Shown: positions 3,421-64,000 of the stretch, one piece after another
How the letters are laid out: every line of letters starts with the position of its first letter
Numbering within the stretch: the first letter of the stretch is position 1
Assembly: GCA_016186825.1 (NCBI GenBank)
Contig: JACPKW010000006.1
Span: 3,191 to 67,190 of the forward strand
Direction of reading: 5' to 3'
DNA length: 64,000 nucleotides
Source: Candidatus Giovannonibacteria bacterium
GTDB lineage: Bacteria > Patescibacteriota > Minisyncoccia > JACPKW01 > UBA11713
Made by a program: the position numbers and the translations under genes
The notes under the pieces: model-generated
Database searches by the model: none
Told to the model about the DNA's origin: nothing
Seen by the model: the letters and a program-made list of their open reading frames with translations, nothing else

Positions 3421-4026
3421 ATGAAAAAATTTTACATTATTGGACTTGGCAATCCCGATTCCAAATATATGGGAACAAGACACAATGCGGGACGAATGAT
3501 GGTCCAGCTTTTTGGAAAGAAAAATGATTTTCCGGATTTCGAGCTTCAAAAAAAATCAGCACTGGTAGCTGAAGGTAAAATAAATAAGACATCTGTCTCT
3601 CTTATTTTGCCCGAGCTTTTTATGAACAACTCTGGCAAGTCTATAAAAAATTTCATAAAACCGAAAAAAACTTTAAAGCATGTAATCGTTTTAAATGACG
3701 ACATTGATATTCCGATCGGGAAATTCAAAATCGTATTCAACCGCGGTTCAGGCGGGCATAAAGGAGTCGAATCAGTCAGGCGCGCGCTCGGCACAGAAGC
3801 ATTTGTTCGCGTGAGGGTTGGAATCTGTCCCAAGAAACCTGCCCGCAATGCTACGCATAGCGTTGCGGGCGGGAAACCGACGCATCGCGAATTGCTAAAA
3901 CTTCTCACCGCGAAATTCAAGCCATCCGAAGAGGCTGAACTCAAAAAAATTTCCAAAAAAGTTTTGGAAGCGCTCGTGATCATCATCACCGAAGGCCATG
4001 AAAAAGCAATGAGTTTGTTTAATTAA
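3421..4026 (+). CDS. pth: peptidyl-tRNA hydrolase
   Basis: MKKFYIIGLGNPDSKYMGTRHNAG... canonical Pth N-terminus. Confidence 0.85.
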   Translation: MKKFYIIGLGNPDSKYMGTRHNAGRMMVQLFGKKNDFPDFELQKKSALVAEGKINKTSVSLILPELFMNNSGKSIKNFIKPKKTLKHVIVLNDDIDIPIGKFKIVFNRGSGGHKGVESVRRALGTEAFVRVRVGICPKKPARNATHSVAGGKPTHRELLKLLTAKFKPSEEAELKKISKKVLEALVIIITEGHEKAMSLFN

Positions 4027-4077: not shown

Positions 4078-6027
4078 ATGACTGATCCGCCTAAAAGATA
4101 CCAGAAAATAATAATTTTTGCCCCTACCCCCTCTTTTTTGGAACGGGGCGATTTGGCATTGGAGAAAGATATTGAAAAATATCGTGCGCTTCGCATCCGA
4201 AATAATTTTTGGCAAAGAAACACGTTGATTATCGAGACCGGAAAATATATCAAACCGACAGAGCTTGCGCGTAAACTTACCGATCTCGGTTATGAAAAAT
4301 ATCCGCTCTCGGCTGAAAGCCATATCCATAAAGGAGAATTTTCCTGGACCGGCGGGCTGATTACAATTTTCCCGATCAACAGCCCTACCCCAATTACAAT
4401 CGAGTTTATCGGAAATGAAATTGCGGCTATTGAAGAAGCAAAAATCGTAAGTCACAAATCGGTTTTCGAGAAAAAGACAGAGCACAAATTCGAACCCGGA
4501 GATTTTGTCGTTCATGAAGACCATGGAATTGGAATATTTCGCAGATACAGCGACACAAACGAGCAATTTTTAATTCTGGAATACGCTCCGGCCCGGAAGG
4601 GCGGCGAGCCGGACCGCCTTTTCGTCCCCCAAAAAGTCTCGGACAAAGTTGCGCCCTATCTCGGGTTAAGGAACCCGAAAATTAATCGCTTGGGAACTCC
4701 GCTTTGGTTTCATACGAAAAAGAAAGCGAAAGAAGACATCATAAAATTCGCACACGAATTGTTAGCGCTTTACCAAACGCGCGCTGATGTGAAAAGAAAT
4801 TCATATGATGCCTCGGAACTTGAAAAAGAAATCTGGGAAAATTTTCAATTTGAAGAAACACCCGGACAGAAAAAAGCGCTCGAAGATATTTTTTCTGATT
4901 TTTCAAAAAACGAGCCAATGGAACGGCTCGTAATCGGCGATGTCGGATTTGGAAAAACTGAAGTAGCGCTTCGCGCCGCACTTCGCGTAATTTTAAATGG
5001 AAAGCAAGCTGCCCTTCTTGCGCCAACTACAGTCCTCGCGGATCAGCACGCGCAGGTTTTTAAAGAGCGCTTTGAGGCACTCGGCTTGAATGTGGCGCGT
5101 TTTACAAGGCTTGAAAAAAGTGCGGCAGTTCGCAATATTAAAAAATTCGTGCTCGAAGGGAAAACAGATATTCTAATCGGGACACATCGGGCGCTCTCGA
5201 AAGAACTTGAATTCAAATCGCTTGGCCTTTTAATTATTGACGAAGAGCAGCGCTTCGGAGTGCGGCAAAAAGAAACACTGAAGAAAAAATATCCGGAAGT
5301 AGATATTTTATATCTTTCCGCAACGCCGATTCCGCGCACACTAGCATTTTCAATTTCAAAAATTCGTCCGATGAGCTTCATCAGCGATCCTCCGGAGGGC
5401 CGAAAACCGATCGTGACCTTCATTCTTCCGCGAACGGATAAAATCATCAAAGAAGCGATTGCAAGAGAAATCGAGCGAAAAGGTCAAATTTATTTTTTGG
5501 TTCCGCGGATTGAAAAAATCGGTTTTATAAAAAATAAACTCGACAAATTATTTCCGAAAGTTAAAAAGGCCGTTCTCCACGCGCGTCTCCCCGAAAAAGA
5601 CTTGGTCAAAAGCATGCATGACTTCCGCGAAGGTTCAGTTGAGCTGTTGATTTCAACAACAATAATCGAAAACGGCCTCGACATTTCAAACGTCAATACA
5701 TTGATTGTGGAAAATTCAGCGCTCTTAGGTTTAGCTCAAGCCCATCAGCTCCGCGGGCGAATTGGAAGAAAGGAGATCCAGGCTTATGCATATTTTTTAT
5801 ATCCATCGAAAAAGTTAACTCCGCTCGCCCAAGAGCGCCTCGAAACTTTGGTTTCTTTCCAAGAACTGGGAGCGGGGTTTGAAATCGCAAAAAAAGATCT
5901 AGAGATCCGCGGTGCGGGAAACGTGTTAGGACGCGAGCAATCCGGGGTAATAAATAAAATCGGCTGGAATTTGTATTTCCAGTATTTATCGGAATCTTTG
6001 GACGAAACATCACGAATAGATATTTAA
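4078..6027 (+). CDS. mfd: transcription-repair coupling factor, short form (lacks UvrB-homology N-domains and most of the C-terminal TRCF domain)
   Basis: 649 aa; CarD/RNAP-interacting region (GDFVVHEDHGIGIF), SF2 helicase motifs DVGFGKTEVALRAA, LLIIDEEQRFGV, HQLRGRIGR; collinear with E. coli Mfd residues ~480-1000. Confidence 0.85.
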   Translation: MTDPPKRYQKIIIFAPTPSFLERGDLALEKDIEKYRALRIRNNFWQRNTLIIETGKYIKPTELARKLTDLGYEKYPLSAESHIHKGEFSWTGGLITIFPINSPTPITIEFIGNEIAAIEEAKIVSHKSVFEKKTEHKFEPGDFVVHEDHGIGIFRRYSDTNEQFLILEYAPARKGGEPDRLFVPQKVSDKVAPYLGLRNPKINRLGTPLWFHTKKKAKEDIIKFAHELLALYQTRADVKRNSYDASELEKEIWENFQFEETPGQKKALEDIFSDFSKNEPMERLVIGDVGFGKTEVALRAALRVILNGKQAALLAPTTVLADQHAQVFKERFEALGLNVARFTRLEKSAAVRNIKKFVLEGKTDILIGTHRALSKELEFKSLGLLIIDEEQRFGVRQKETLKKKYPEVDILYLSATPIPRTLAFSISKIRPMSFISDPPEGRKPIVTFILPRTDKIIKEAIAREIERKGQIYFLVPRIEKIGFIKNKLDKLFPKVKKAVLHARLPEKDLVKSMHDFREGSVELLISTTIIENGLDISNVNTLIVENSALLGLAQAHQLRGRIGRKEIQAYAYFLYPSKKLTPLAQERLETLVSFQELGAGFEIAKKDLEIRGAGNVLGREQSGVINKIGWNLYFQYLSESLDETSRIDI

Positions 6028-6163: not shown

Positions 6164-7345
6164 CTACGCTTTCGTCTCTTCTTTCGCTTTCGCTTCATCA
6201 CCCAAATAAGAAAGTGTGAGTCTTCGTTCTTTGGGTTCAAAAAGAGTGATTTGAAATGGATATTTTCCGCCAAGTTCGAGTTTGTCGCGCATCTGTTTTT
6301 CGGATCCAAATTCAGAAATGTGGCAAAGACCAGAAACGCCTTCTTCAATCGCGATCAACGCGCCATATTTATTGAAACGGAGCACTTTTCCTTCAACAAT
6401 ATCCCCTTTCCTGTATTTTTCCGCCGCTCTTACCCACGGATCCGGCTTCAATGCTTTTACAGAAAGCGAGACACGCCCCGCATCGATGCCGATAATTTTC
6501 GCCTGCAACTTGTCTCCAACTTTAAAGTGCTCATTCGGATTTTCGATTAGCGACCAATCCAGTTCTGAAATGTGGCAGAGGCCTTCGAGCCCCTCTTCAA
6601 GTTTTATAAAAATTCCGAAGTCCACTACGCCTGTAACTTCACCTTCAATCACATTCCCAATTTCATATTTAGAAATTACTTCCTTAAATTCATCAGATTC
6701 CGCTCCTTTTTCGGAAAAAATAATTTTTTCCTCTTTAGGATCGAGCGCAATTAACGTCACGCCGAGCGTTGTTCCCACAAACTTTCTAAGTTCGTCTAAA
6801 ATGCGGTCCTTGTCTCCGCCCTCCACGCGCGGGTAATGTCCCATTTTTAACTGCGACGCCGGGAGAAAGCCTTTCATTTTTTTCCATTCGAGCACCAAAC
6901 CGCCTTTGTTCGCATCAATCACTTCCAAATTCAACGTTTCTTTTTTATTCATTAATTCTTCCGCTTCAAGCCAAACCAAATCGTTCCCTGCTTCTTTCAA
7001 AGAAAGCTCGATATACCCGTCTTCGTTTTCAAGTTCGAGCACTTTTGCAGTTACGCTGTCGCCAGCTTTCAAATTCTTTATAATTTCGCGCGCCCGCATA
7101 AATTCACGGCCATATACGATTCCAACGCCTGCCGCTCCTAAATCCACCATCAAACGCGGGCCGGAACGCCCAATCACGAGCCCTTCGATAAGCTCGCCCG
7201 CGCGCGGAATCAAAACAGGAACTTTTTTAAAAAGTTCCTCCATCAAGCTATTTTTCTTTTTTGCTTCTTCTTCCGAAATGAACGCAGCATTTAAAGTCTT
7301 AGGCGACATGCCAAAAAGTATAAACAATCTATAAAAAAGAGGCAA
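6164..7345 (-). CDS. rpsA: 30S ribosomal protein S1
   Basis: 393 aa; four S1-like OB repeats (..G.V.G.V..I..FG.FV.L..G..GL.HISE..). Confidence 0.85.
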   Translation of the reverse strand: MPLFYRLFILFGMSPKTLNAAFISEEEAKKKNSLMEELFKKVPVLIPRAGELIEGLVIGRSGPRLMVDLGAAGVGIVYGREFMRAREIIKNLKAGDSVTAKVLELENEDGYIELSLKEAGNDLVWLEAEELMNKKETLNLEVIDANKGGLVLEWKKMKGFLPASQLKMGHYPRVEGGDKDRILDELRKFVGTTLGVTLIALDPKEEKIIFSEKGAESDEFKEVISKYEIGNVIEGEVTGVVDFGIFIKLEEGLEGLCHISELDWSLIENPNEHFKVGDKLQAKIIGIDAGRVSLSVKALKPDPWVRAAEKYRKGDIVEGKVLRFNKYGALIAIEEGVSGLCHISEFGSEKQMRDKLELGGKYPFQITLFEPKERRLTLSYLGDEAKAKEETKA

Positions 7346-15269: not shown

Positions 15270-15292
15270 ATTTAAGTTTTTTTAATCTTCGG

Positions 15293-15483
15293 AGGCCATG
15301 GCGGGACTCGCACCCGCGTATAGCGGTTTTGCCCGCCTGCCAGAGCTTGAGGCCTGGGAGGGATTCGAACCCTCGTATATGGGTTTTGCAGACCCATGCC
15401 TTACCTCTTGGCTACCAGGCCATATTTGCTCAGGCCGATTGCGGGCAGGCAGACCGCCGCGTTAGCTTCTTCGCCACATGGCC
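15293..15483 (-). tRNA. candidate interrupted/split tRNA (Gly-GCC-like) whose anticodon loop contains tRNA-Cys
   Basis: 5' part 15448-15483: GGCCATG-TG-GCGA..ACGC-G-GCGGT-CTGCC; 3' part 15293-15330: AA-ACCGC-TATAC-GCGGG-TGCGAGT-CCCGC-CATGGCC-T; acceptor 7/7 and anticodon stem 5/5 complementary; D/T loops non-canonical. Confidence 0.4.
15350..15421 (-). tRNA. tRNA-Cys (GCA)
   Basis: GGCCTGG/CCAGGCC acceptor, loop CTGCAAA, GGTTCGAATCC. Confidence 0.85.
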
Positions 15484-32175: not shown

Positions 32176-32205
32176 CTAAGCGCGCATATTTTTAATTTTC
32201 TATCT

Positions 32206-32322
32206 ATGCGCAGTATTCTTGAATTAGTCCGAACCCCGGTAGTAAAGCAAAGCTTACTACGGGGCACGGCGCATTTCGCCGCCTGCGGCGGCGAGCCTGC
32301 CTGCCGGTAGGCAGGTTTGGCG
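32206..32322. repeat. island repeat module copy (hairpin motif + CCTGCCTGCCGGTAGGCAGG palindrome) immediately downstream of paralog P1
   Basis: GCAGTATTCTTGAATTAGTCCGAACCCCGGTAGTAAAGCAAAGCTTACT..GGGG shared with 35183-35260; palindrome shared with 35443-35462 and R repeats. Confidence 0.55.
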
Positions 32323-32330
32323 GCAAATTC

Positions 32331-33021
32331 TTATTGGATAAATTTAAAACTTCCAACCAATTCTTCAAAAGCAGCATTATCAAAAATCTCACCCCGTTTA
32401 TTCATTTTTATGGTTATGCCTTCAATCTTATCTCCTCCGCGTAAATACTTTAACGCCGTAATTGGTATGTATACCACCTCTAGAATTTCGTCACTACCAA
32501 TATTTTGTTCTGTAAACCGTGTCGCTTGCATACCACTCACAAGAACCACTTCCCGAAAATTAGATGAAGCTTTTCTTCCACGATCTTTCATTTTTCCAGC
32601 CAGTTCCTTTATTGAATCAATGCTTACTGGTATCGGATATATTTCAATGCTGTTTTGTAGTGAAGTTTGTGCTAAAGAAGGGGCGAAGAATAGTTCTTCC
32701 GATTTTGCTGCTTGTTGTGCTCCGGTTAGAAAACGCAGTTCTTCATTCCTATCATTTTTTGTGACAAGAACAAATTCAGCATTTTCATCGGCAAAATTGG
32801 TAATTGGATTTGGTCCAGTCGTATTCATAAACTTTGTGTAATCCAATGCAACTCGATAATTTTTCGGCAGAGAAAATGTATAACCCAATCTATTATTTAT
32901 GTAACTCGTTTTTTGTTCTGTGGTCGTGTTCGGTGTTTGAATGTCATTATCGCTCCCCCCTTTTTTTGTTAAGAACAGATAACCTCCAATTCCAAGCACG
33001 ACAATAACAAGTAGTATTATT
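32331..33021 (-). pseudogene. paralog P1 of anchored secreted-protein family; canonical ATG replaced by ACG (possible pseudogene or rare start)
   Basis: upstream in-frame codons encode ..T-NQKGFAKILIILLVIVVLGIGGYLF.. matching MNQKGFANI.. N-termini of P2-P4, but ATG->ACG; ORF-track start is internal GTG at 32999. Confidence 0.45.
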
Positions 33022-33083
33022 AAAATTTTAGCAAATCCCTTTTGGTTCGTATTGATAAAAATTTAAGTCAATGATTAAAAAAT

Positions 33084-33206
33084 TTTTCTTTTCCCCAAAA
33101 TTAAAATATGGTTCGAGCCGACCCGCCTGCATCAGCTATGCTGAAAGCATTGCGGGCAGGTGTTTTTCTATGGGTTCTTTACCTACCGGCAGGCAGGTTT
33201 GGCGGC
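33084..33206. repeat. R repeat copy R1 (5'-leader/intergenic module)
   Basis: TTTTCCCCAAAATTAAAATATGGTTCGAGCCGACCCGCCTGCATCAGCTATGCTGAAAGCATTGCGGGCAGG..CCTACCGGCAGGCAGGTTTGGCGGC; near-identical to 33972-34095 and 37383-37500. Confidence 0.6.
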
Positions 33207-33336
33207 ATTCAATCAAAAATTCGTAGAGCGAATACTTAAAGAATATAAGATTATGACAAAAATTTCAATTTCAAAAAAAGTACGAGCCCCAAGCAGAATT
33301 GAATTCCACGAGGGGCTCGAGTGGTCACCGACGCCG

Positions 33337-33819
33337 TTAGGCGAAGATTTCGGTGGCGTAGCGCTTGGAAAAGAAACGGAACTTGATCCGGTCGAGCATG
33401 GTAAGCGTCGCCTTGCCCCACCGCGCGAGGTTCACGAACACGGTGCCGTCGTTCGAATCCATGAAGTCCTTGAACTGGTAATCCACCGGGTCGCCCTTGT
33501 GGAACTCGAGGACGACGTCCCAGCCGTCCTCAATCGCCTGCATGCCAGTGAATATGCCACAGCGAGTGGTACTGCTGAACTGGATGAACTTGTCGCCCTG
33601 CTCGCTAGTCATTCGAACATCCACCATCTCGCACATCGCGCCGTACTTGCGGATCGCCTCGTCGATCGAGATCGTCCGCCCCTTGCCGGGAGCCCACCGC
33701 AGACCCGCCAGTTGTCCATCGTCGTAGATGTTCATCTGGAAAAGCGGCATAGGGTGACCCTTGAGGTTGAGAAACTCCTGGGCCTTCTTGAGCCCGCCGA
33801 GTGTAGGTTTGTAACCCAT
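33337..33819 (-). CDS. GC-rich foreign hypothetical protein (160 aa) occupying a paralog slot
   Basis: local GC ~60% vs ~40% genome; strong SD GGAGGG 7 nt upstream of ATG; own terminator GAGCCCC..GGGGCTC+T7 at ~33262-33305; balanced aa composition whereas + strand ORF 33160-33993 is antisense-like. Confidence 0.55.
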   Translation of the reverse strand: MGYKPTLGGLKKAQEFLNLKGHPMPLFQMNIYDDGQLAGLRWAPGKGRTISIDEAIRKYGAMCEMVDVRMTSEQGDKFIQFSSTTRCGIFTGMQAIEDGWDVVLEFHKGDPVDYQFKDFMDSNDGTVFVNLARWGKATLTMLDRIKFRFFSKRYATEIFA

Positions 33820-33971
33820 AACGGTTCCCTCCTTTCAATGTGCAGTTTGATTCCATCCAAGCACCATGCCTGGATTTCCTGCTATCCAACCATAATAGGA
33901 CTTGTGTGTCAAGCGCAACAAAAAATCACCATCTCTGGTGTTTCTCATTTCTTAACTCTTTGGATTAAAAA

Positions 33972-34170
33972 CTTTTCTTTCCCCCAAAATTAAAATATGG
34001 TTCGAGTCGACCCGCCTGCATCAGCTATGCTGAAAACATTGCGGGCAGGTGTTTTTCTCCAGGTTCCCTGCCTACCGGCAGGCAAGTTTTGCGGTTTTTA
34101 TCAGCGCGAACATCTTTATCATATCACAAACAACATTCCTTTCCCAATCTGGTGCAGTATTCTTGAATTA
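33972..34170. repeat. R repeat copy R2
   Basis: same module as R1/R5 plus tail ..CTGGTGCAGTATTCTTGAATTAGTCCGAACCC. Confidence 0.6.
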
Positions 34171-34447
34171 GTCCGAACCCATTTCGCCGCCGCACCGATA
34201 ACAATTTTCCTTCAACTTCGTTCAGGATGGTGAGCTTGCCGAATCAACAAGTTTTTCTTCTTGACCTGAGCTTATCGAAGGTTGGAGGCAGGAGTTATTT
34301 ACTGACTCACAACATGTTAACTACAATATCTTTCTGTTTATTAACATGTCCAACACAAGGCATATAGTGGTGATCAGTGATCTAGTTCTCCGATAACTCC
34401 TTCAATTTTTTATATTTAAGTTCTTTCGGTATGTGCGTAATTATAGA

Positions 34448-35080
34448 CTACCTTGATGCTTGATAGAATTTAATTGTTGCAATTGCGGCTTCAGAGGAAG
34501 CAAATATCTCATCAACACGATTTTTTTCTACATTAGGACCACCAAGAACTCGTATCGTGATTCCTTTATTAGTAAGTGGATGAATAAAATAGAGATCTTC
34601 TAAAATATTAATCACCACATTTGGATCAGAAGAGAAAAACTCTGTTTTGCAACCTTGAACGGATATTCCTCCTGAAGTTTTAATCTCAATTCCACCCCTT
34701 TTTATCCCTCCGCCCAAGGTATTATCACCAGTGCATCCTGATGACTGATATTCTTTCAGAGTATGATCGTCATTAGAATAGGTCCATGTAATATAATACT
34801 TAGGGGGATTAGACGGAATTAGAGCGTTAGCTTCTTTACTATCAAGCGCGTCTCCCCCGGAAATCAAATAACTAGCCCCTACATGGGGCTTCCATTTATT
34901 AACATCGTAGTGAATTTCTATACCAAATGCGTCGCTTCGAAAAATCCCTAACCCCATGCTATCGATCGTTTTCGTTGGAGATTGACTCAGATTTTTAATA
35001 AGCGCAAAATATCCAATCGTACCTACAAGTATCACAATGACTACTATCAAAACAATATTCGCAAATCCCTTTTGGTTCAT
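34448..35080 (-). CDS. paralog P2, anchored secreted protein
   Basis: 210 aa; MNQKGFANIVLIVVIVILVG N-terminus. Confidence 0.55.
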   Translation of the reverse strand: MNQKGFANIVLIVVIVILVGTIGYFALIKNLSQSPTKTIDSMGLGIFRSDAFGIEIHYDVNKWKPHVGASYLISGGDALDSKEANALIPSNPPKYYITWTYSNDDHTLKEYQSSGCTGDNTLGGGIKRGGIEIKTSGGISVQGCKTEFFSSDPNVVINILEDLYFIHPLTNKGITIRVLGGPNVEKNRVDEIFASSEAAIATIKFYQASR

Positions 35081-35126
35081 GTTAAAAATTTATTCGCTAT
35101 TAAGTTTTCCACTCATTATTAAAAAA

Positions 35127-35260
35127 TTTTCTTCCCCAAAAATTAAAATATGGTTCGATATTCTTAGTATAGCATTATTTTTGCAGTATTCTTGAATTAG
35201 TCCGAACCCCGGTAGTAAAGCAAAGCTTACTGCGGGGCATGGCGCATTTTGCCGCACCGA
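35127..35260. repeat. R repeat copy R3 (variant)
   Basis: TTTTCTTCCCCAAAAATTAAAATATGGTTCGAT + GCAGTATTCTTGAATTAGTCCGAACCCCGGTAGTAAAGCAAAGCTTACTGCGGGG. Confidence 0.5.
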
Positions 35261-35477
35261 TGCTTGCCCCGTACCAATCCTAAGCAAGAACTCGGCAATG
35301 GTAGTATGTAAGCCGAAGGCGATATCGCGAGATAAACTTAGATTTTAGAAGCGATATATTTGGGATTGGTGCGGGGACAATTTTCCCGCCGCATATTTAA
35401 AATTTTAGAAGGCGGGATCCCGTTAAAAACGGTGACAAGTTTTTCCCTGCCTGCCGGCAGGCAGGTTTGGCGGCAAA

Positions 35478-36116
35478 TTATTTAGTCCAAACAAAGGACG
35501 AAACAATATGATCAAAAACAGAATCGTATTTACTATCAAGACCATGTGCAAATCTAAACTCTGCAGTGTAATCTCCTTTCGTAATTGTCGCAATATACTG
35601 TTCAGATCCTGGTTCTCTTTTTTGTATAAGAATTTCGGTACTGCCAGATTTTATCTTTCTCAAGGTAGTGTAAGTGTACCAAACTGGGGGCGGCGGTGTT
35701 TTTTTGTAATTGATAATTACGACAGAAATACTTTTTTGTTCAGAGGTTTCTCCTGGAGGCAAAAAATAAACACTCGTCCCAATCTCACCAGTTCCAAACT
35801 CTTTTATAGACCAATTGAGCGGATATTCAGCCGAATATCCAAACCACTGATTTGTTTTGCTATATATCTTCCAGCCGCTATCAGCTGGTTTCTTTACTGG
35901 TTCGCTCCCTCCACTTTTTATCGACTCACTGTTAACAAGTGGTTTAGGTTCACTCTGTATATTTTCCGCCGGAGTTTTATCGGAGCTTGTAGATTCGACA
36001 GGCTGATTTACAGGAGGATTCTGTGGGCGTTGCCTCAGTACAAAATATCCAGTCGCGCCAACAAGTACAACGACCAGAACAATTACGATTATATTTGCAA
36101 ATCCCTTTTGATTCAT
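35478..36116 (-). CDS. paralog P3, anchored secreted protein
   Basis: 212 aa; MNQKGFANIIVIVLVVVLVG; WKIYSKTNQWFGYSAEYPLNW motif. Confidence 0.55.
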   Translation of the reverse strand: MNQKGFANIIVIVLVVVLVGATGYFVLRQRPQNPPVNQPVESTSSDKTPAENIQSEPKPLVNSESIKSGGSEPVKKPADSGWKIYSKTNQWFGYSAEYPLNWSIKEFGTGEIGTSVYFLPPGETSEQKSISVVIINYKKTPPPPVWYTYTTLRKIKSGSTEILIQKREPGSEQYIATITKGDYTAEFRFAHGLDSKYDSVFDHIVSSFVWTK

Positions 36117-36126
36117 ATGATTAAAA

Positions 36127-36296
36127 CTTTTCTTCCCCCAAAATTAAAATATGGTTCGAGCCGATTGTTTTAACGGGTTCTATGCCTACCGGCAGGCAAG
36201 TTTTGCGGTTTTTATCAGCGCGAACGTCTTTATAATATCACAAACAATGTTCCTTTCTAAACTGGTGCAGAATTCTTGAATTAGTCCGAACCCATT
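36127..36296. repeat. R repeat copy R4 (internal deletion variant)
   Basis: CTTTTCTTCCCCCAAAATTAAAATATGGTTCGAGCCGA..CCTACCGGCAGGCAAGTTTTGCGG..CTGGTGCAGAATTCTTGAATTAGTCCGAACCC. Confidence 0.55.
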
Positions 36297-36435
36297 TCGC
36301 CGCAGTTACCGACTCTTTTTGTGGCCATATTGATGAGATGTTTTATGCTGGTAATCACCCCTTGATTTTACCAACGGCGGTGTCGCAGGGGTATTACCGA
36401 TGTATCTCATCTTCTGCAATAATTGCAATCTCTTT

Positions 36436-36690
36436 TTATAATTCGGATTTATTTTTTAAACGATTTTCGATAAAAAGCGAAACAAAAAGCAATATCAATG
36501 CCCCTAATGCGATTGGGGTCGCAAAATATTTATAAAACGGCCATGGGCAAAAACCGCGTTCATATAAAGGTGCATTCTGCATTTCTGTAATGCATTTGTT
36601 TTCAACTGTTAAAATAACGACAAGAAAAATAAAATAAAGCACGACGATCGCAAGACTTAGCAATTTGAAAAACTTTATGAAAACCACCAT
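36436..36690 (-). CDS. hypothetical small membrane protein
   Basis: 84 aa, two TM helices, Cys pair. Confidence 0.35.
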   Translation of the reverse strand: MVVFIKFFKLLSLAIVVLYFIFLVVILTVENKCITEMQNAPLYERGFCPWPFYKYFATPIALGALILLFVSLFIENRLKNKSEL

Positions 36691-36767
36691 ATGGTCTTAG
36701 AATTAAATTAATTAATAAATTTGAAAGTTAGGAGGATTTCATTAACTGTTTTCCTTTTAGCGGTAAA

Positions 36768-37328
36768 CTATTCAGCATACTTTAAGGTCTTAGCGATTGC
36801 TTCCATCTGAGAAACATGGGCATCAACGAGTGATTTATTAAAGCATCCGGAATCAAATCTATCATATCGCGTTTGACCATCAAATTTCGTGTATGCAATT
36901 TGTAGCGTTACATCATCACCCTCACATTTTATAAGAGTTTCATCTACCATCTCGCCATCGATTAAAATTTTCTTAGCCCAAACTGTGCCATAACCGATAT
37001 ATCCACCAACTTCTTTCATGCCAGCAAAAAACGTAAATTGAAAACCGGGTTTTTCAAAAATCACGTTTGTCCAAGTAGAGCCGGGTTTTTCGGATAACTT
37101 TAGCTCCAATGGATATTTTAGCTCAAATCCATATTTTTCACTTCTGTATGTTTTCCAGCTTGCAGTTTCGCTATTAGATATAGGAGGAGTTTGTGTTGTG
37201 GCTGGAGGCATTTTTTGTTCAGCAGAAGGAGCCGAGATTTTTACGAATGCAAAATATCCGCCGACAGCTACGATGGCAACGATTACTATTATCAAAACAA
37301 TATTCGCAAATCCTTTTTGATTTTTCAT
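36768..37328 (-). CDS. paralog P4, anchored secreted protein
   Basis: 186 aa; MKNQKGFANIVLIIVIVAIVAVGG; WKTYRSEKYGFELKYPLELK. Confidence 0.55.
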   Translation of the reverse strand: MKNQKGFANIVLIIVIVAIVAVGGYFAFVKISAPSAEQKMPPATTQTPPISNSETASWKTYRSEKYGFELKYPLELKLSEKPGSTWTNVIFEKPGFQFTFFAGMKEVGGYIGYGTVWAKKILIDGEMVDETLIKCEGDDVTLQIAYTKFDGQTRYDRFDSGCFNKSLVDAHVSQMEAIAKTLKYAE

Positions 37329-37382
37329 ATTAATATGATTATTAGTTAATAATTTCCGACTTTATGTTTATGATTAAAAAAT

Positions 37383-37560
37383 TTTTTTCCCCAAAATTAA
37401 AACATGGTTCGAGCCGACCCGCCTGCATCAGCTATGCTGAAAACATTGCGGGCAGGTGTTTTTCTCCAGGTTCCCTGCCTACCGGCAGGCAGGTTTTGCG
37501 GTTTTTATCAGCGCAAACGTCTTTATAATATCACAAACAACATTCCTTTCTAAACTGGTG
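37383..37560. repeat. R repeat copy R5, fused at its distal end to a tRNA 3' half
   Basis: same module as R1/R2; ends ..AAACTGGTG|CCCCCGCCAAGAATCGAACTTGG. Confidence 0.6.
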
Positions 37561-37736
37561 CCCCCGCCAAGAATCGAACTTGGATCTACTCCTTACCTGC
37601 CCACCGTTGCCTGCGCCCTCGGCAGGAATCGAACCTACATCTAGGGCTTAGAAGACCCCTATTCTATCCATTGAACTACGAGGGCAACTTAGGCAGGTGG
37701 GGAAGGGAGCTATTCTATCCGTTGAACTACAGGGGC
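37556..37736 (-). tRNA. candidate interrupted/split tRNA (Arg-like body) whose anticodon loop contains tRNA-Arg(TCT); CCA encoded
   Basis: 5' half 37701-37736: GCCCCTG-TA-GTTC-AACGGATA-GAAT-A-GCTCC-CTTCC; 3' half 37556-37592: AA-GGAGT-AGAT-CCAAG-TTCGATT-CTTGG-CGGGGGC-A-CCA; acceptor 7/7 (one G.U), anticodon stem 5/5 (one G.U); canonical D and T loops. Confidence 0.45.
37614..37685 (-). tRNA. tRNA-Arg (TCT)
   Basis: GCCCTCG/CGAGGGC acceptor, loop CTTCTAA, TTCGATT T-loop. Confidence 0.85.
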
Positions 37737-37770
37737 TTTTAAATAAAAATGCGTAAGTATTTTAACCGAT

Positions 37771-38064
37771 TTAAGGATTGGTTTCAAATCCCGCGCCATT
37801 AGCATCAAAAGCGGATTTTTTTTCGTTTATTCTTTGGAATACTTTTCGAAAACTGTCTTTTTTCAGCGTCTGTAATACGTCATCATCAGAATAGTTTTTT
37901 GCGCTGTTCCCATTCAAATTAACGGAGTAAACCCACCAGTCAAATACAAAAACAATAATAAGCAGAAGGACAGAGAAAGCAATAAGCTTGCTCCACCAGC
38001 GCCCGGGCGCCGAACTAAATACATCACTTATATTAACTGACGGTTTTTTTATATTAAAATTCAT
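37771..38064 (-). CDS. hypothetical membrane protein, first gene downstream of pilO in T4P operon
   Basis: 97 aa, one TM. Confidence 0.35.
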   Translation of the reverse strand: MNFNIKKPSVNISDVFSSAPGRWWSKLIAFSVLLLIIVFVFDWWVYSVNLNGNSAKNYSDDDVLQTLKKDSFRKVFQRINEKKSAFDANGAGFETNP

Positions 38065-62712: not shown

Positions 62713-63126
62713 TTACTCACTTAATATTATATTTTTTGTCCAGCGTATTTTAGCTTTCTTTGCCTCTAAATCAAGGAAAACTGCCATTACATCTACCTGC
62801 CAATCATAATCCTCAAATTTTGAGTGCTCCGCGAGCCATGTCTGAATCGCCCGCCATAACCTTCTCTTTTTCCACGAATGCACATTTTCCTCTGGCAAAT
62901 AATCAATCAACGTGTTTTCACGTGTAACTTGTCCCTTTACCTCGATAAAATGGAGTTCTGACGGATTTCTCGAAATTGCCACGATGTCGATCTCTCCCCA
63001 CTTACGAAGATAATTCCGCTCAAGAACGACAAAACCATGTTTCACTATATGTTTCACGGCAATAGTTTCACAAACGTTGCCAACTTTTCTTTTTGATGAA
63101 GGCATATAAGTTACACGTGAAAACAA
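62713..63126 (-). CDS. YraN/UPF0102-family putative endonuclease
   Basis: 137 aa; GEIDIVAI...FIEVKG motif. Confidence 0.55.
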   Translation of the reverse strand: MFSRVTYMPSSKRKVGNVCETIAVKHIVKHGFVVLERNYLRKWGEIDIVAISRNPSELHFIEVKGQVTRENTLIDYLPEENVHSWKKRRLWRAIQTWLAEHSKFEDYDWQVDVMAVFLDLEAKKAKIRWTKNIILSE

Positions 63127-63173: not shown

Positions 63174-63734
63174 TTAGTTTGTTTCATGTGAAATCATTCT
63201 TACTTTCTTATAAACCTCATAGCATGCCATGGCATCCGCCAGCGCTGTATGATGTTTTTCATTGCTAATACCGAGCTTTTTTGCAGTTCCACCCAACCCA
63301 AGCTCACTCCATTCGTACCCGAGTTTGCTGTAAGCATATGAGGTTATGTCAAATACTCGCTTATGGAAATCGAGTTGAACGCCGGTTTTCGTGGATGCCG
63401 CGTCTAAGAAAGCATAGTCTGTTGAAATATTCCAGCCCGCGAGAATAGTATTTTGAATTTTAGCTGAAAGCATCTTCATCATTTCCTTCAGACTAACTGC
63501 GCTTTTCCAGGCATCGGCATCATAATTACTGATGCGAAGTGCTTCAGGATCAGCGTTTTCAAGTTTTTCCGGTTTTACTTTTACGTCCCAAGATTCGATA
63601 ATTTCAAGCTTAGGTTGCGAAACTTTCACCAATCCGATTTCAACAATTTCATGTTTAGACCCTTCGAGCCCCGTCATTTCGAGATCAATAAAAGAAATAG
63701 GGGATTCATTTGTTTCAAATTCCTTACCTTTCAT
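63174..63734 (-). CDS. DEDD-family 3'-5' exonuclease (DnaQ-like)
   Basis: 186 aa; Exo I FIDLEMTGL, Exo III HTALADAMACYEVY. Confidence 0.8.
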   Translation of the reverse strand: MKGKEFETNESPISFIDLEMTGLEGSKHEIVEIGLVKVSQPKLEIIESWDVKVKPEKLENADPEALRISNYDADAWKSAVSLKEMMKMLSAKIQNTILAGWNISTDYAFLDAASTKTGVQLDFHKRVFDITSYAYSKLGYEWSELGLGGTAKKLGISNEKHHTALADAMACYEVYKKVRMISHETN

Positions 63735-63861
63735 GAAATTTCATTCTCGCATGAAAAACCGGAAGCGTAAAATTAAAAACGATTCTTTAAAAAAGAGTAA
63801 AAAAAAATTCGCTGAAAGAAAAAGCTGGGTTTCGGCAACTTGCCACGCCACTTAATATTAG

Positions 63862-63932
63862 TGGACCCGGGGGGAATTGAACCCCCGCTTGCGCAATGCG
63901 AATGCGCCGTTATGCCACTTAACTACGGGCCC
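63862..63932 (-). tRNA. tRNA-Ala (CGC)
   Basis: GGGCCCG acceptor with G3:U70, loop TTCGCAT. Confidence 0.8.
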
Positions 63933-64000
63933 GTAGAATAAGTGGCGGGGTAAGATGCCGCTTTCGCCCGCTTCCTACTGCGGGCGCATTTCCGTCTATA

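Follow-up and report, generated by a model that had tools for sequence, protein, structure and literature searches.

A complete tRNA-Arg(UCU) gene in palindromic arms within the anticodon of another tRNA-Arg(UCU) gene in Candidatus Giovannonibacteria

Analysis of a 64,000-nucleotide (nt) stretch of groundwater DNA from a Candidatus Giovannonibacteria genome (Patescibacteria, also candidate phyla radiation, CPR), referred to in full as the window, revealed a tRNA-Arg(UCU) gene split within its anticodon by an insert that holds a second, complete tRNA-Arg(UCU) gene between the arms of a palindrome. The window spans positions 3,191-67,190 of the forward strand of contig JACPKW010000006.1 (GCA_016186825.1) and is a chromosome segment with housekeeping genes. 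Such an arrangement, termed a nest below, probably arose when a palindromic mini-element disrupted the resident gene at the DNA level and brought its replacement along, in which case cleavage of the transcript by RNase P and RNase Z would free the inner tRNA and the outer halves would be relics. The initial annotation, made from the window alone, had proposed a tRNA inside a tRNA at this locus as an arrangement undescribed for bacteria; the nested gene is real, and the lack of an earlier description agrees with literature searches on nested tRNAs, tRNA-in-tRNA, CPR tRNA introns, and palindromic elements in tRNA genes.

Anatomy of the tRNA-Arg(UCU) nest

The features of the nest were as follows (sequences from other genomes and metagenomes carry L numbers):

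37759..37787, minus strand: sigma-70-like promoter TTGAAA-17-TAAAAT, 10/12 matches, about 20 nt upstream of the outer 5' half
37702..37736, minus strand: outer tRNA-Arg(UCU) 5' half, nt 1-35 (acceptor 5' strand, D arm, anticodon-stem 5' strand, and loop C32-C35)
37686..37701, minus strand: flank x, CCCACCTGCCTAAGTT, palindrome left arm and 5' leader of the inner tRNA, homologous to CCCGCCTGCCTACGCTAT (L015/L023) and CCCGCCTGCCAGAATT (L024)
37614..37685, minus strand: inner complete tRNA-Arg(UCU) with discriminator G73, presumed functional (ARAGORN 37613-37685; Rfam tRNA 66.5 bits)
37596..37613, minus strand: flank y, CAGGCAACGGTGGGCAGG, palindrome right arm and 3' trailer of the inner tRNA
37559..37595, minus strand: outer 3' half, nt 36-73 (U36 A37 A38, anticodon-stem 3' strand, variable loop, T arm, acceptor 3' strand, and A73)

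The two outer halves (37736-37702 and 37595-37559) enclosed an insert of 106 nt, rather than the 108 nt first counted, made up of the 16-nt flank x, the complete 72-nt tRNA-Arg(UCU) including G73, and the 18-nt flank y. The 5' half reads GCCCCTG-TA-GTTC-AACGGATA-GAAT-A-GCTCC-CTTC (37736-37702) and the 3' half with its CCA reads TAA-GGAGT-AGAT-CCAAG-TTCGATT-CTTGG-CGGGGGC-A-CCA (37595-37556; CCA at 37558-37556). The initial annotation placed the start of the 3' half 2 nt short of the letters that it quoted, which begin at 37594 and not at 37592. The junctions CTTC/CCCA... and ...CAGG/TAAG (the slash marking the boundary) had no nucleotide repeated between them. The CCA of the outer gene is encoded, as had been remarked, though this is atypical for the window, where it was present in one of 17 other tRNA genes, and it coincided with the start of a downstream repeat (GCACCAG...).

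The inner gene had been recognized as a complete tRNA-Arg(TCT) at 37614-37685, which both ARAGORN and Rfam (66.5 bits) upheld, and all of its stems were paired. The outer helices were likewise intact as claimed, with perfect pairing throughout the window outer gene. ARAGORN intron mode, put forward as a check on the locus, failed on the native sequence, where several settings reported the inner tRNA only and left the outer gene out, but succeeded once the outer halves were joined in silico, calling a tRNA that was Arg(TCT) for CTTC/TAA and Gly(TCC) for CC/AA. The joined halves were identical at 68 of 72 positions to the intact ortholog at L031 (three positions differing in the 5' half) and with so few differences the outer sequence must be a real tRNA gene in two pieces rather than a chance resemblance. 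An identical nest sequence was recovered in independently assembled Logan contigs from other runs (L001), showing that the nest is not an assembly artefact of this record.

The minimum free energy fold of the locus paired the arms x and y. No promoter-like site was found between the outer 5' half and the inner tRNA, and the one upstream of the outer 5' half was the only such site for both tRNAs, suggesting that the two would be co-transcribed.

Nests, empty sites, and the palindromic repeat family

An exact-pattern scan (26-mer of the D arm and anticodon stem; one genome per species) returned 20 Patescibacteria loci, of which 19 were uninterrupted tRNA-Arg genes reading GCTCC-CTTCTAA-GGAGT. 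These intact orthologs identify the outer gene as tRNA-Arg(UCU) and place the insert exactly between C35 and U36 (CTTC/TAA), overturning the earlier CC/AA junction that would yield Gly-UCC. The 20th locus (L015, Ca. Giovannonibacteria NC_groundwater_154) held the same nest, the pattern having matched its inner tRNA. A metagenome scan for the 3' junction gave four matches comprising two further nests (L023 and L024), interrupted at the same nucleotide and with homologous flanks, and two chance matches (L025 and L026) that were rejected as nests. The same architecture was present in NCBI, JGI, and ENA assemblies from different sites, and comparison with related genomes, a check named at the outset, yielded both uninterrupted collinear orthologs and the same nested arrangement. 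A megablast of 8 kb around the Arg locus against a phage collection gave no match, and a scan of viral contigs for the 3' junction of the Arg nest found nothing.

Flank x reads CCCACCTGCCTAAGTT in the window, CCCGCCTGCCTACGCTAT in L015 and L023, and CCCGCCTGCCAGAATT in L024, with flank y following the consensus CAGGCA-N4-5-G(T/C)GGGCAGG. When the four nests (alignment A1: window, L015, L023, and L024) were scored against a hand-drawn structure of both cloverleaves and two flank helices, 98% of it was paired and 14 pairs were changed on both sides, compared to 38-49% pairing in slid registers. The flank helices were 100% and 94% paired across the four genomes, with one compensatory change (CCCAC/GTGGG versus CCCGC/GCGGG). 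The 7-nt pairing ACCUGCC/GGCAGGU that had been noted at the boundaries does form but includes the exon nucleotide U36, and the covarying helix is instead CCCRC/GYGGG plus TGCC/GGCA. The inner stems were perfect in all four nests, and the outer acceptor stem carried two mismatches in L023 (C1.C72 and A7.C66) and one in L024. In L024, an 83-nt insert also interrupted the 3' end of the inner tRNA, within a duplicated tRNA 3' end footprint of the kind described below.

The type IV pilus operon upstream of the nest was syntenic in the nested window, L015, and L023, and the same synteny accompanied an uninterrupted tRNA-Arg(UCU) in L019, L006, L029, L031, and L027. Direct comparison of PilM proteins gave 37-48% identity among the window, L015, L023, L006, and L019, and showed the window to be less similar to L023 than the uninterrupted L006 and L019 were, such that the distribution of nests is patchy.

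Differences between tRNAs, counted pairwise over 72 positions, separated the inner from the outer genes. The window outer gene differed from intact L031 at 4/72 positions and shared with it, and with a chimeric gene at L033, the derived T stem CCAAG/CTTGG, and it is assigned on this basis as the resident ortholog. The window inner gene had seven differences from the L024 inner gene, 10 from that of L023, and 17 from its own outer gene, and inner and outer genes at the same locus (window, L023, and L024) differed at 17-24 positions; the inner genes of these three nests are accordingly taken as a cargo lineage distinct from the outer genes. All inner genes carried G73. The L015 outer gene showed four differences from the intact L019 and L011 genes, and L015 and L023 had identical flanks yet inner tRNAs that differed at 18 positions. 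As the outer genes match residents of their own clades while the flanks and mostly the inner genes are shared, repeated acquisition at one site is suggested rather than one ancient event. At L033, ...CTTC/CCCGCCTGCCTACGTTAT was followed by one chimeric tRNA with a resident-type T arm, lacking flank y and a 3' half, which looks like a resolved nest remnant, the product expected of recombination between the directly repeated 3' halves.

Further nests were revealed by a deletion scan in which each tRNA was removed with 0-40 nt of flank and ARAGORN was rerun; the scan gave many false positives where tRNA genes lay no more than 40 nt apart and was hence not used as a clean control. A tRNA-Cys nest, also reached via the pattern CCCRCCTGCC, occupied 15291-15483 of the window (minus strand):

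15449..15483, minus strand: outer tRNA-Cys(GCA) 5' half, ending CTGC (C35)
15331..15448, minus strand: insert of flank CTGCCCGCAATCGGCCTGAGCAAATAT, complete tRNA-Cys(GCA) (15421-15350), and flank CAAGCTCTGGCAGGCGGGC
15293..15330, minus strand: outer tRNA-Cys(GCA) 3' half, from A36, starting AAA-ACCGC

The Cys junction was compatible with 35/36, a 2-nt ambiguity allowing 33/34 to 35/36. Its palindrome arms were inverted relative to those of the Arg nest, with the inner tRNA co-oriented with the outer in both. Five relatives with the same IF-2/rbfA context (among L035-L040) had a plain tRNA-Cys with a 10-21 nt spacer on each side, and the inner tRNA-Cys resembled this resident gene. The outer tRNA-Cys lacked the D-loop GG and had the T loop TGCGAGT; a scan of viral contigs for its T arm, GCGGGTGCGAGTCCCGC, gave 40 unrelated matches, some of them genuine phage tRNAs, and such a T loop alone is therefore no proof of decay. 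An ARAGORN call of "tRNA-SeC (tca)" at 15291-15384 (minus strand) was rejected as an artefact of the outer tRNA-Cys 3' half that overlaps tRNA-Cys and has no Rfam support.

In another Patescibacteria genome (L008), a tRNA-Gly(UCC) with 23-bp AT-rich complementary flanks lay inside another tRNA-Gly(UCC) at 5713-5930, where a 5-nt repeat (CAAGC) allows the junction anywhere from 35/36 to 40/41. The inner anticodon equaled the outer anticodon in all six nests (Arg x4, Cys, and Gly). When the leader-trailer duplexes of 100 tRNAs were ranked by strength, nests took six of the top seven places (-26 to -30 kcal/mol compared to a median of -8.3), and L024 fell outside this strongest set because its extra 83-nt insertion lies in the scored 35-nt window. 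Nearby in L008, at 6230-6390, a tRNA-Ala(CGC) was followed by the 3' half of another tRNA, and its flanks start with CCCCGT.TATAAC as in the L008 nest. In the window, a tRNA-Ala(CGC) (63861-63932) occupied the apex of an inverted repeat (22 nt, 86% complementary; 63833-63960, minus strand) and had no outer halves, and thus constitutes a free-standing "arm-tRNA-arm" unit.

The arms of the nests belong to a repeat family, in which CCTGCCCGCAATG and its partner GCAGGCGGG form a GC-rich palindrome. Stand-alone copies were located at:

37418..37456, minus strand: stand-alone palindrome (CCTGCCCGCAATG-loop-GCAGGCGGG), about 100 nt downstream of the Arg nest
34011-34049 and 33122-33160: other stand-alone palindromes, also present in L023
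3838-3873, plus strand: pth palindrome, 36 nt, CCTGCCCGCAATGCTACGCATAGCGTTGCGGGCGGG, in frame within the peptidyl-tRNA hydrolase gene (3421-4026)

Three of these (33122-33160, 34011-34049, and 37418-37456) were located in island repeats, and the pattern CCCRCCTGCC (at most one mismatch) had 18 matches compared to 3.2 expected. Flank y of L015 and L023, CATTGCGGGCAGG, was the exact reverse complement of CCTGCCCGCAATG, and flank x of the same nests matched the other arm plus the first half of the apical stem-loop at 15/18 positions. Each nest is therefore a palindrome with a tRNA in its apical loop, itself placed at the apex of an anticodon hairpin.

The pth palindrome encodes PARNATHSVAGG, a 12-13 amino acid insertion that neither the solved Pth structures nor 13 of 15 close homologs contain; two of 16 homologs carried it. 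The only other carrier was the Giovannonibacteria genome L019 (pth sequence L081), and the palindrome was identical at 35 of 36 nt between the two genomes compared to 332/498 (67%) for the remaining gene. So conserved an element in so diverged a gene bears the signature of a selfish DNA palindrome of the Rickettsia palindromic element (RPE) kind, one that would be retained in the transcript and not spliced out. RPEs, like repetitive extragenic palindromic (REP) and miniature inverted-repeat transposable element (MITE) types, are short multicopy palindromes that enter genes, stay in frame, and are more conserved than their hosts. The pth copy resembles RPEs in its in-frame retention and its higher conservation than the host gene, and the family as a whole has inverted-repeat ends, cargo-free copies, presence/absence polymorphism, and elements more conserved than the host sequence, as selfish palindromes do. 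We know of no RPE, REP, or MITE element with a tRNA gene in its loop or within the anticodon of a cognate tRNA.

Proposed mechanism and alternative explanations

A sequence of events consistent with these observations would begin with the entry of a 106-nt non-autonomous palindromic element into the resident tRNA-Arg(UCU) gene between C35 and U36, after which the resident promoter upstream of the outer 5' half would drive a single transcript through the unit. The arms would pair and stack on the outer anticodon stem, leaving the inner cloverleaf to fold alone, shielded from outer halves that resemble it. The inner tRNA would then be released by RNase P and RNase Z (or 3' exonucleases), have its 3' end completed by the CCA-adding enzyme (CCA is not encoded in 16 of the 17 other window tRNA genes), and supply the UCU-anticodon function. 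The outer halves would stay unjoined, with 16- and 18-nt extensions and no anticodon loop, and would decay slowly or disappear by recombination between the direct repeats that inner and outer halves form. An essential single-copy tRNA gene would tolerate the insertion only through the same-anticodon replacement aboard, and the identity of inner and outer anticodons is expected if the interrupted gene is dead and essential. Spread between genomes into a highly conserved target may involve a trans-acting enzyme acting at hairpin apices or homologous recombination via the exons. Of the two readings offered by the initial annotation, a small tRNA-bearing mobile insertion into the anticodon loop is the one favored by the recurrence with homologous flanks, the empty sites, the palindrome family, and the opposite orientations.

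Several observations weigh against such an insertion. No transposase, integrase, recombinase, or homing-endonuclease gene was found among 60 open reading frames (ORFs) of the window, leaving the mobilization step unexplained; no common target motif flanked the palindrome copies and no target-site duplication was present at the Arg nests. The Arg, Cys, and Gly elements all lie at or beside position 35/36 of a cognate tRNA, likewise without explanation. The window and L015 outer genes pair perfectly and are better kept than expected of old pseudogenes, and five compensatory double changes separate the outer tRNA-Cys from its relatives with no stem broken, hinting at selection on its helices. Finally, the L015 inner tRNA is resident-type and not of the cargo lineage, with five differences from the window outer gene.

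The well-kept outer helices would be accounted for by a true bacterial tRNA intron, an unlikely alternative in which one transcript gives rise to two tRNAs with the same anticodon, the outer halves being clamped by the palindrome helix, trimmed, and ligated by an unspecified pathway. It would be a bacterial counterpart of archaeal split-tRNA maturation without the bulge-helix-bulge motif, a comparison that we likewise judge unlikely to hold. In its favor, the outer halves of the window and L015 are intact and perfectly paired, and stems are maintained through compensatory changes, among them one at pair 5-68 across the split, to which the five double changes of the outer tRNA-Cys may be added; the flanks are far more conserved than the inner tRNA (identical in L015 and L023 with 18 differences between the inner genes); and 35/36 is the site favored by self-splicing introns in Patescibacteria tRNAs (PMC13011429). 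The group I introns at 35/36 of Patescibacteria tRNA genes are self-splicing ribozymes longer than 200 nt, with a U before them and a G as their last nucleotide (Nakagawa et al., 2026; PMC13011429). The nest shares with them the phylum, the position in the anticodon loop, and a host gene missed by standard tRNA finders, but differs in having no catalytic core, a 5' exon that ends in C, and 72 of 106 nt given over to a tRNA. An Rfam cmscan of 37480-37800 with permissive filters (E <= 10) listed no intron family, only 34 nt of the insert are not tRNA, and the last nucleotide of the 5' exon is C35 in all Arg nests where U is required (PMC13011429), and a group I intron was rejected. The insert ends in ...CAGG at its 3' end in the Arg nests and in ...GGGC in the Cys nest if the junction is 35/36. 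Small self-cleaving ribozymes were also rejected, with no cmscan match at E <= 10.

Archaeal intron-containing, split, and permuted tRNA genes are processed at bulge-helix-bulge motifs (reviewed in PMC4090602 and PMC4390854). Such genes resemble the nest in having pieces that can pair via the acceptor and anticodon stems and an extra intervening helix beside the anticodon stem. The nest differs in its occurrence in a bacterium, in having no bulge-helix-bulge at its junctions and no splicing endonuclease in view, and in an intervening sequence that is itself a tRNA of the same identity. Neither junction, as read from the sequence, offers bulge-helix-bulge geometry, since the central helix would pair C30-U33 with GGCA at 2/4 pairs and the outer helix would fall out of the anticodon-stem register; the flank helices supported by covariation differ from those that such a motif would need, and the motif was rejected. 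Neither an EndA splicing endonuclease nor an RtcB-type ligase was found among 60 ORFs of the 64-kb window.

An intron is opposed on other grounds as well, for cleavage by RNase P and RNase Z would yield extensions of 16 and 18 nt in place of exon ends, the inner gene duplicates the outer anticodon in 6/6 nests, which would be needless if the outer gene were spliced, and no palindrome-only "introns" were seen in tRNAs. The palindrome is moreover kept in frame in the pth mRNA and present in both orientations, and the L023 outer acceptor carries the mismatches C1.C72 and A7.C66. The other reading of the initial annotation, an intron or split tRNA with rejoined halves, is hence unsupported, given the missing group I core, bulge-helix-bulge, or known ribozyme, the shared anticodon, the damage in L023, and the partial resolution in L033. 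If the outer exons were rejoined after all, the nest would represent a new bacterial RNA-splicing route.

The disrupt-and-replace logic of the favored mobile insertion has a precedent in the tRNA-dependent lysogeny of actinobacteriophages, in which a host tRNA gene is disrupted and complemented by a phage tRNA of the same isotype (Guerrero-Bustamante and Hatfull, 2024; PMC10865867). As in the nest, an essential tRNA gene is disrupted without being rebuilt and a tRNA matching it in isotype is carried; unlike the nest, the insertion is an entire prophage that has a tyrosine integrase as well as a common core of about 10 bp at attL and attR, compared to 106 nt of palindromic arms plus tRNA inside the anticodon with no repeated core and no recombinase nearby. 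The nests could be fossils of such an integrase-mediated insertion, streamlined to the essential element tRNA and inherited vertically with occasional loss, although we give this little credence. Experiments in mycobacteriophages have established the principle (PMC10865867), the tRNA-Arg locus is a hot spot of integration with a serine-recombinase island between tRNA-Arg and tRNA-Val in L029 and a 5.4-kb island at that site in the window (the two genes being 0-9 nt apart in L031, L019, and L006), and duplicated tRNA 3' ends around small inserts are common in these genomes. Against it, no att core is repeated at the Arg junctions, where a tyrosine or serine recombinase would leave one, and no integrase is present in the window; the flanks are arms of a repeat family found elsewhere and not random deletion remnants, and the outer genes match residents of their own clades, arguing for several recent insertions. 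A serine- or tyrosine-recombinase product at the Arg locus was rejected as no dinucleotide or core is repeated at its junctions (junction repeats being none in Arg, two ambiguous nt in Cys, and 5 nt, CAAGC, in the L008 Gly nest).

Equally improbable is a recurrent local duplication, by which a palindrome inserts in, or arises at, the apex of the anticodon hairpin and an error of replication or repair (template switching at extruded hairpins) then copies the same tRNA in situ into the apex of the palindrome. This would account for the inner anticodon always equaling the outer, for the resident-type inner gene of L015 (five differences from the window outer gene), and for the likeness of the inner tRNA-Cys to the one resident in relatives. 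The two insertion points each lie at a hairpin apex (the center of the anticodon loop for one, the palindrome's apical loop for the other), and each genome has its own palindrome family, GC-rich in the window and CCCCGT.TATAAC in L008. However, the window, L023, and L024 have inner tRNAs that make up a lineage apart from the outer genes (17-24 differences), and independent errors could not easily yield homologous flanks at one and the same nucleotide in four distant genomes. An assembly artefact or chance resemblance, conceivable in metagenome-assembled records where tRNA genes are repeats prone to misassembly, can be dismissed given the identical nest in Logan contigs of other runs, the same architecture in NCBI, JGI, and ENA assemblies from different sites, and the 68/72 identity of the joined outer halves to a real ortholog.

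Bacterial Y RNAs (YrlA and Deinococcus Y RNA) resemble the nest in a long end-to-end stem carrying a tRNA-like module, which accounts for weak, non-significant Y RNA matches in cmscan (E = 1.1 and 2.8, scores far below gathering thresholds). The nest is set apart by an inner module that is a bona fide tRNA-Arg complete with anticodon and by outer parts that are real tRNA-gene halves.

If a palindromic mini-element did insert with its replacement aboard, a selfish palindrome of the CPR would break an essential single-copy tRNA gene because the substitute comes along, and the nest would be the smallest known case of "disrupt and complement", until now known only for whole prophages. It would imply that standard annotation undercounts or miscalls tRNA genes (e.g., the false "tRNA-SeC"), that tRNA genes in streamlined genomes may be laterally replaced without a change in gene order, and that Patescibacteria possess palindromes of the RPE type, which enter protein genes as well as RNA genes.

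The surrounding island and other tRNA loci

A 5.4-kb island (32186-37555) separated tRNA-Arg(UCU) from tRNA-Val(UAC) in the window, these genes lying 0-9 nt apart in L031, L019, and L006. It consisted of four to five tandem cassettes coding for small proteins whose N-terminus reads MNQKGFANI..., with repeats of 170-250 nt (D1-D5) in between; the repeat unit starts with GCACCAG and overlaps the CCA end of the outer tRNA. One island ORF (33337-33819) had a visibly higher G+C content. The D5 repeat GGGTTCGGACTAATTCAAGAATACTGCACCA gave no fold into a tRNA 3' fragment, and an ARAGORN call of "tRNA-Pro with 94-nt intron" (33331-33522, plus strand) looks spurious.

Downstream of tRNA-Leu(GAG), tRNA-Phe, and a number of tRNA-Arg genes, small inserts (75-170 nt) were bounded by duplicated tRNA 3' ends of 15-20 nt, often with an inverted copy of the T-arm strand. 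These duplications were located in the window (23607-23637/23780-23810 and 31369-31386/31492-31509), in L024 (9299-9559), and in L005 and L016, and look like the footprints of small elements targeting tRNA 3' ends. A small GIY-YIG nuclease ORF at L031 8493-8765 ended 3 nt before the uninterrupted tRNA-Arg(UCU), another adjoined tRNA-Ser upstream of IF-2 (L039; L039/L040 1944-2264), and a large serine recombinase island lay between tRNA-Arg and tRNA-Val at L029/L030 8762-10078; these ORFs and the island are possible players in the dynamics of tRNA loci.

ARAGORN intron mode also identified tRNA-Phe(GAA) genes with introns of 212-225 nt at 33/34 in L005 (1191-1476), L010 (3758-4055), and L013 (7334-7618), which are probably group I introns of the type already described for Patescibacteria. 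The T loop TCCGATT, with C at the universal U55, occurred in the uninterrupted and apparently sole tRNA-Arg(UCU) of L003, L006, and L012, as well as in the L023 outer gene. Between tRNA-Pro and the hairpin-embedded tRNA-Ala(CGC), the window held a UPF0102 gene (YraN-type predicted endonuclease; 62713-63126, minus strand) and an RNase T-like exonuclease gene (63174-63734).

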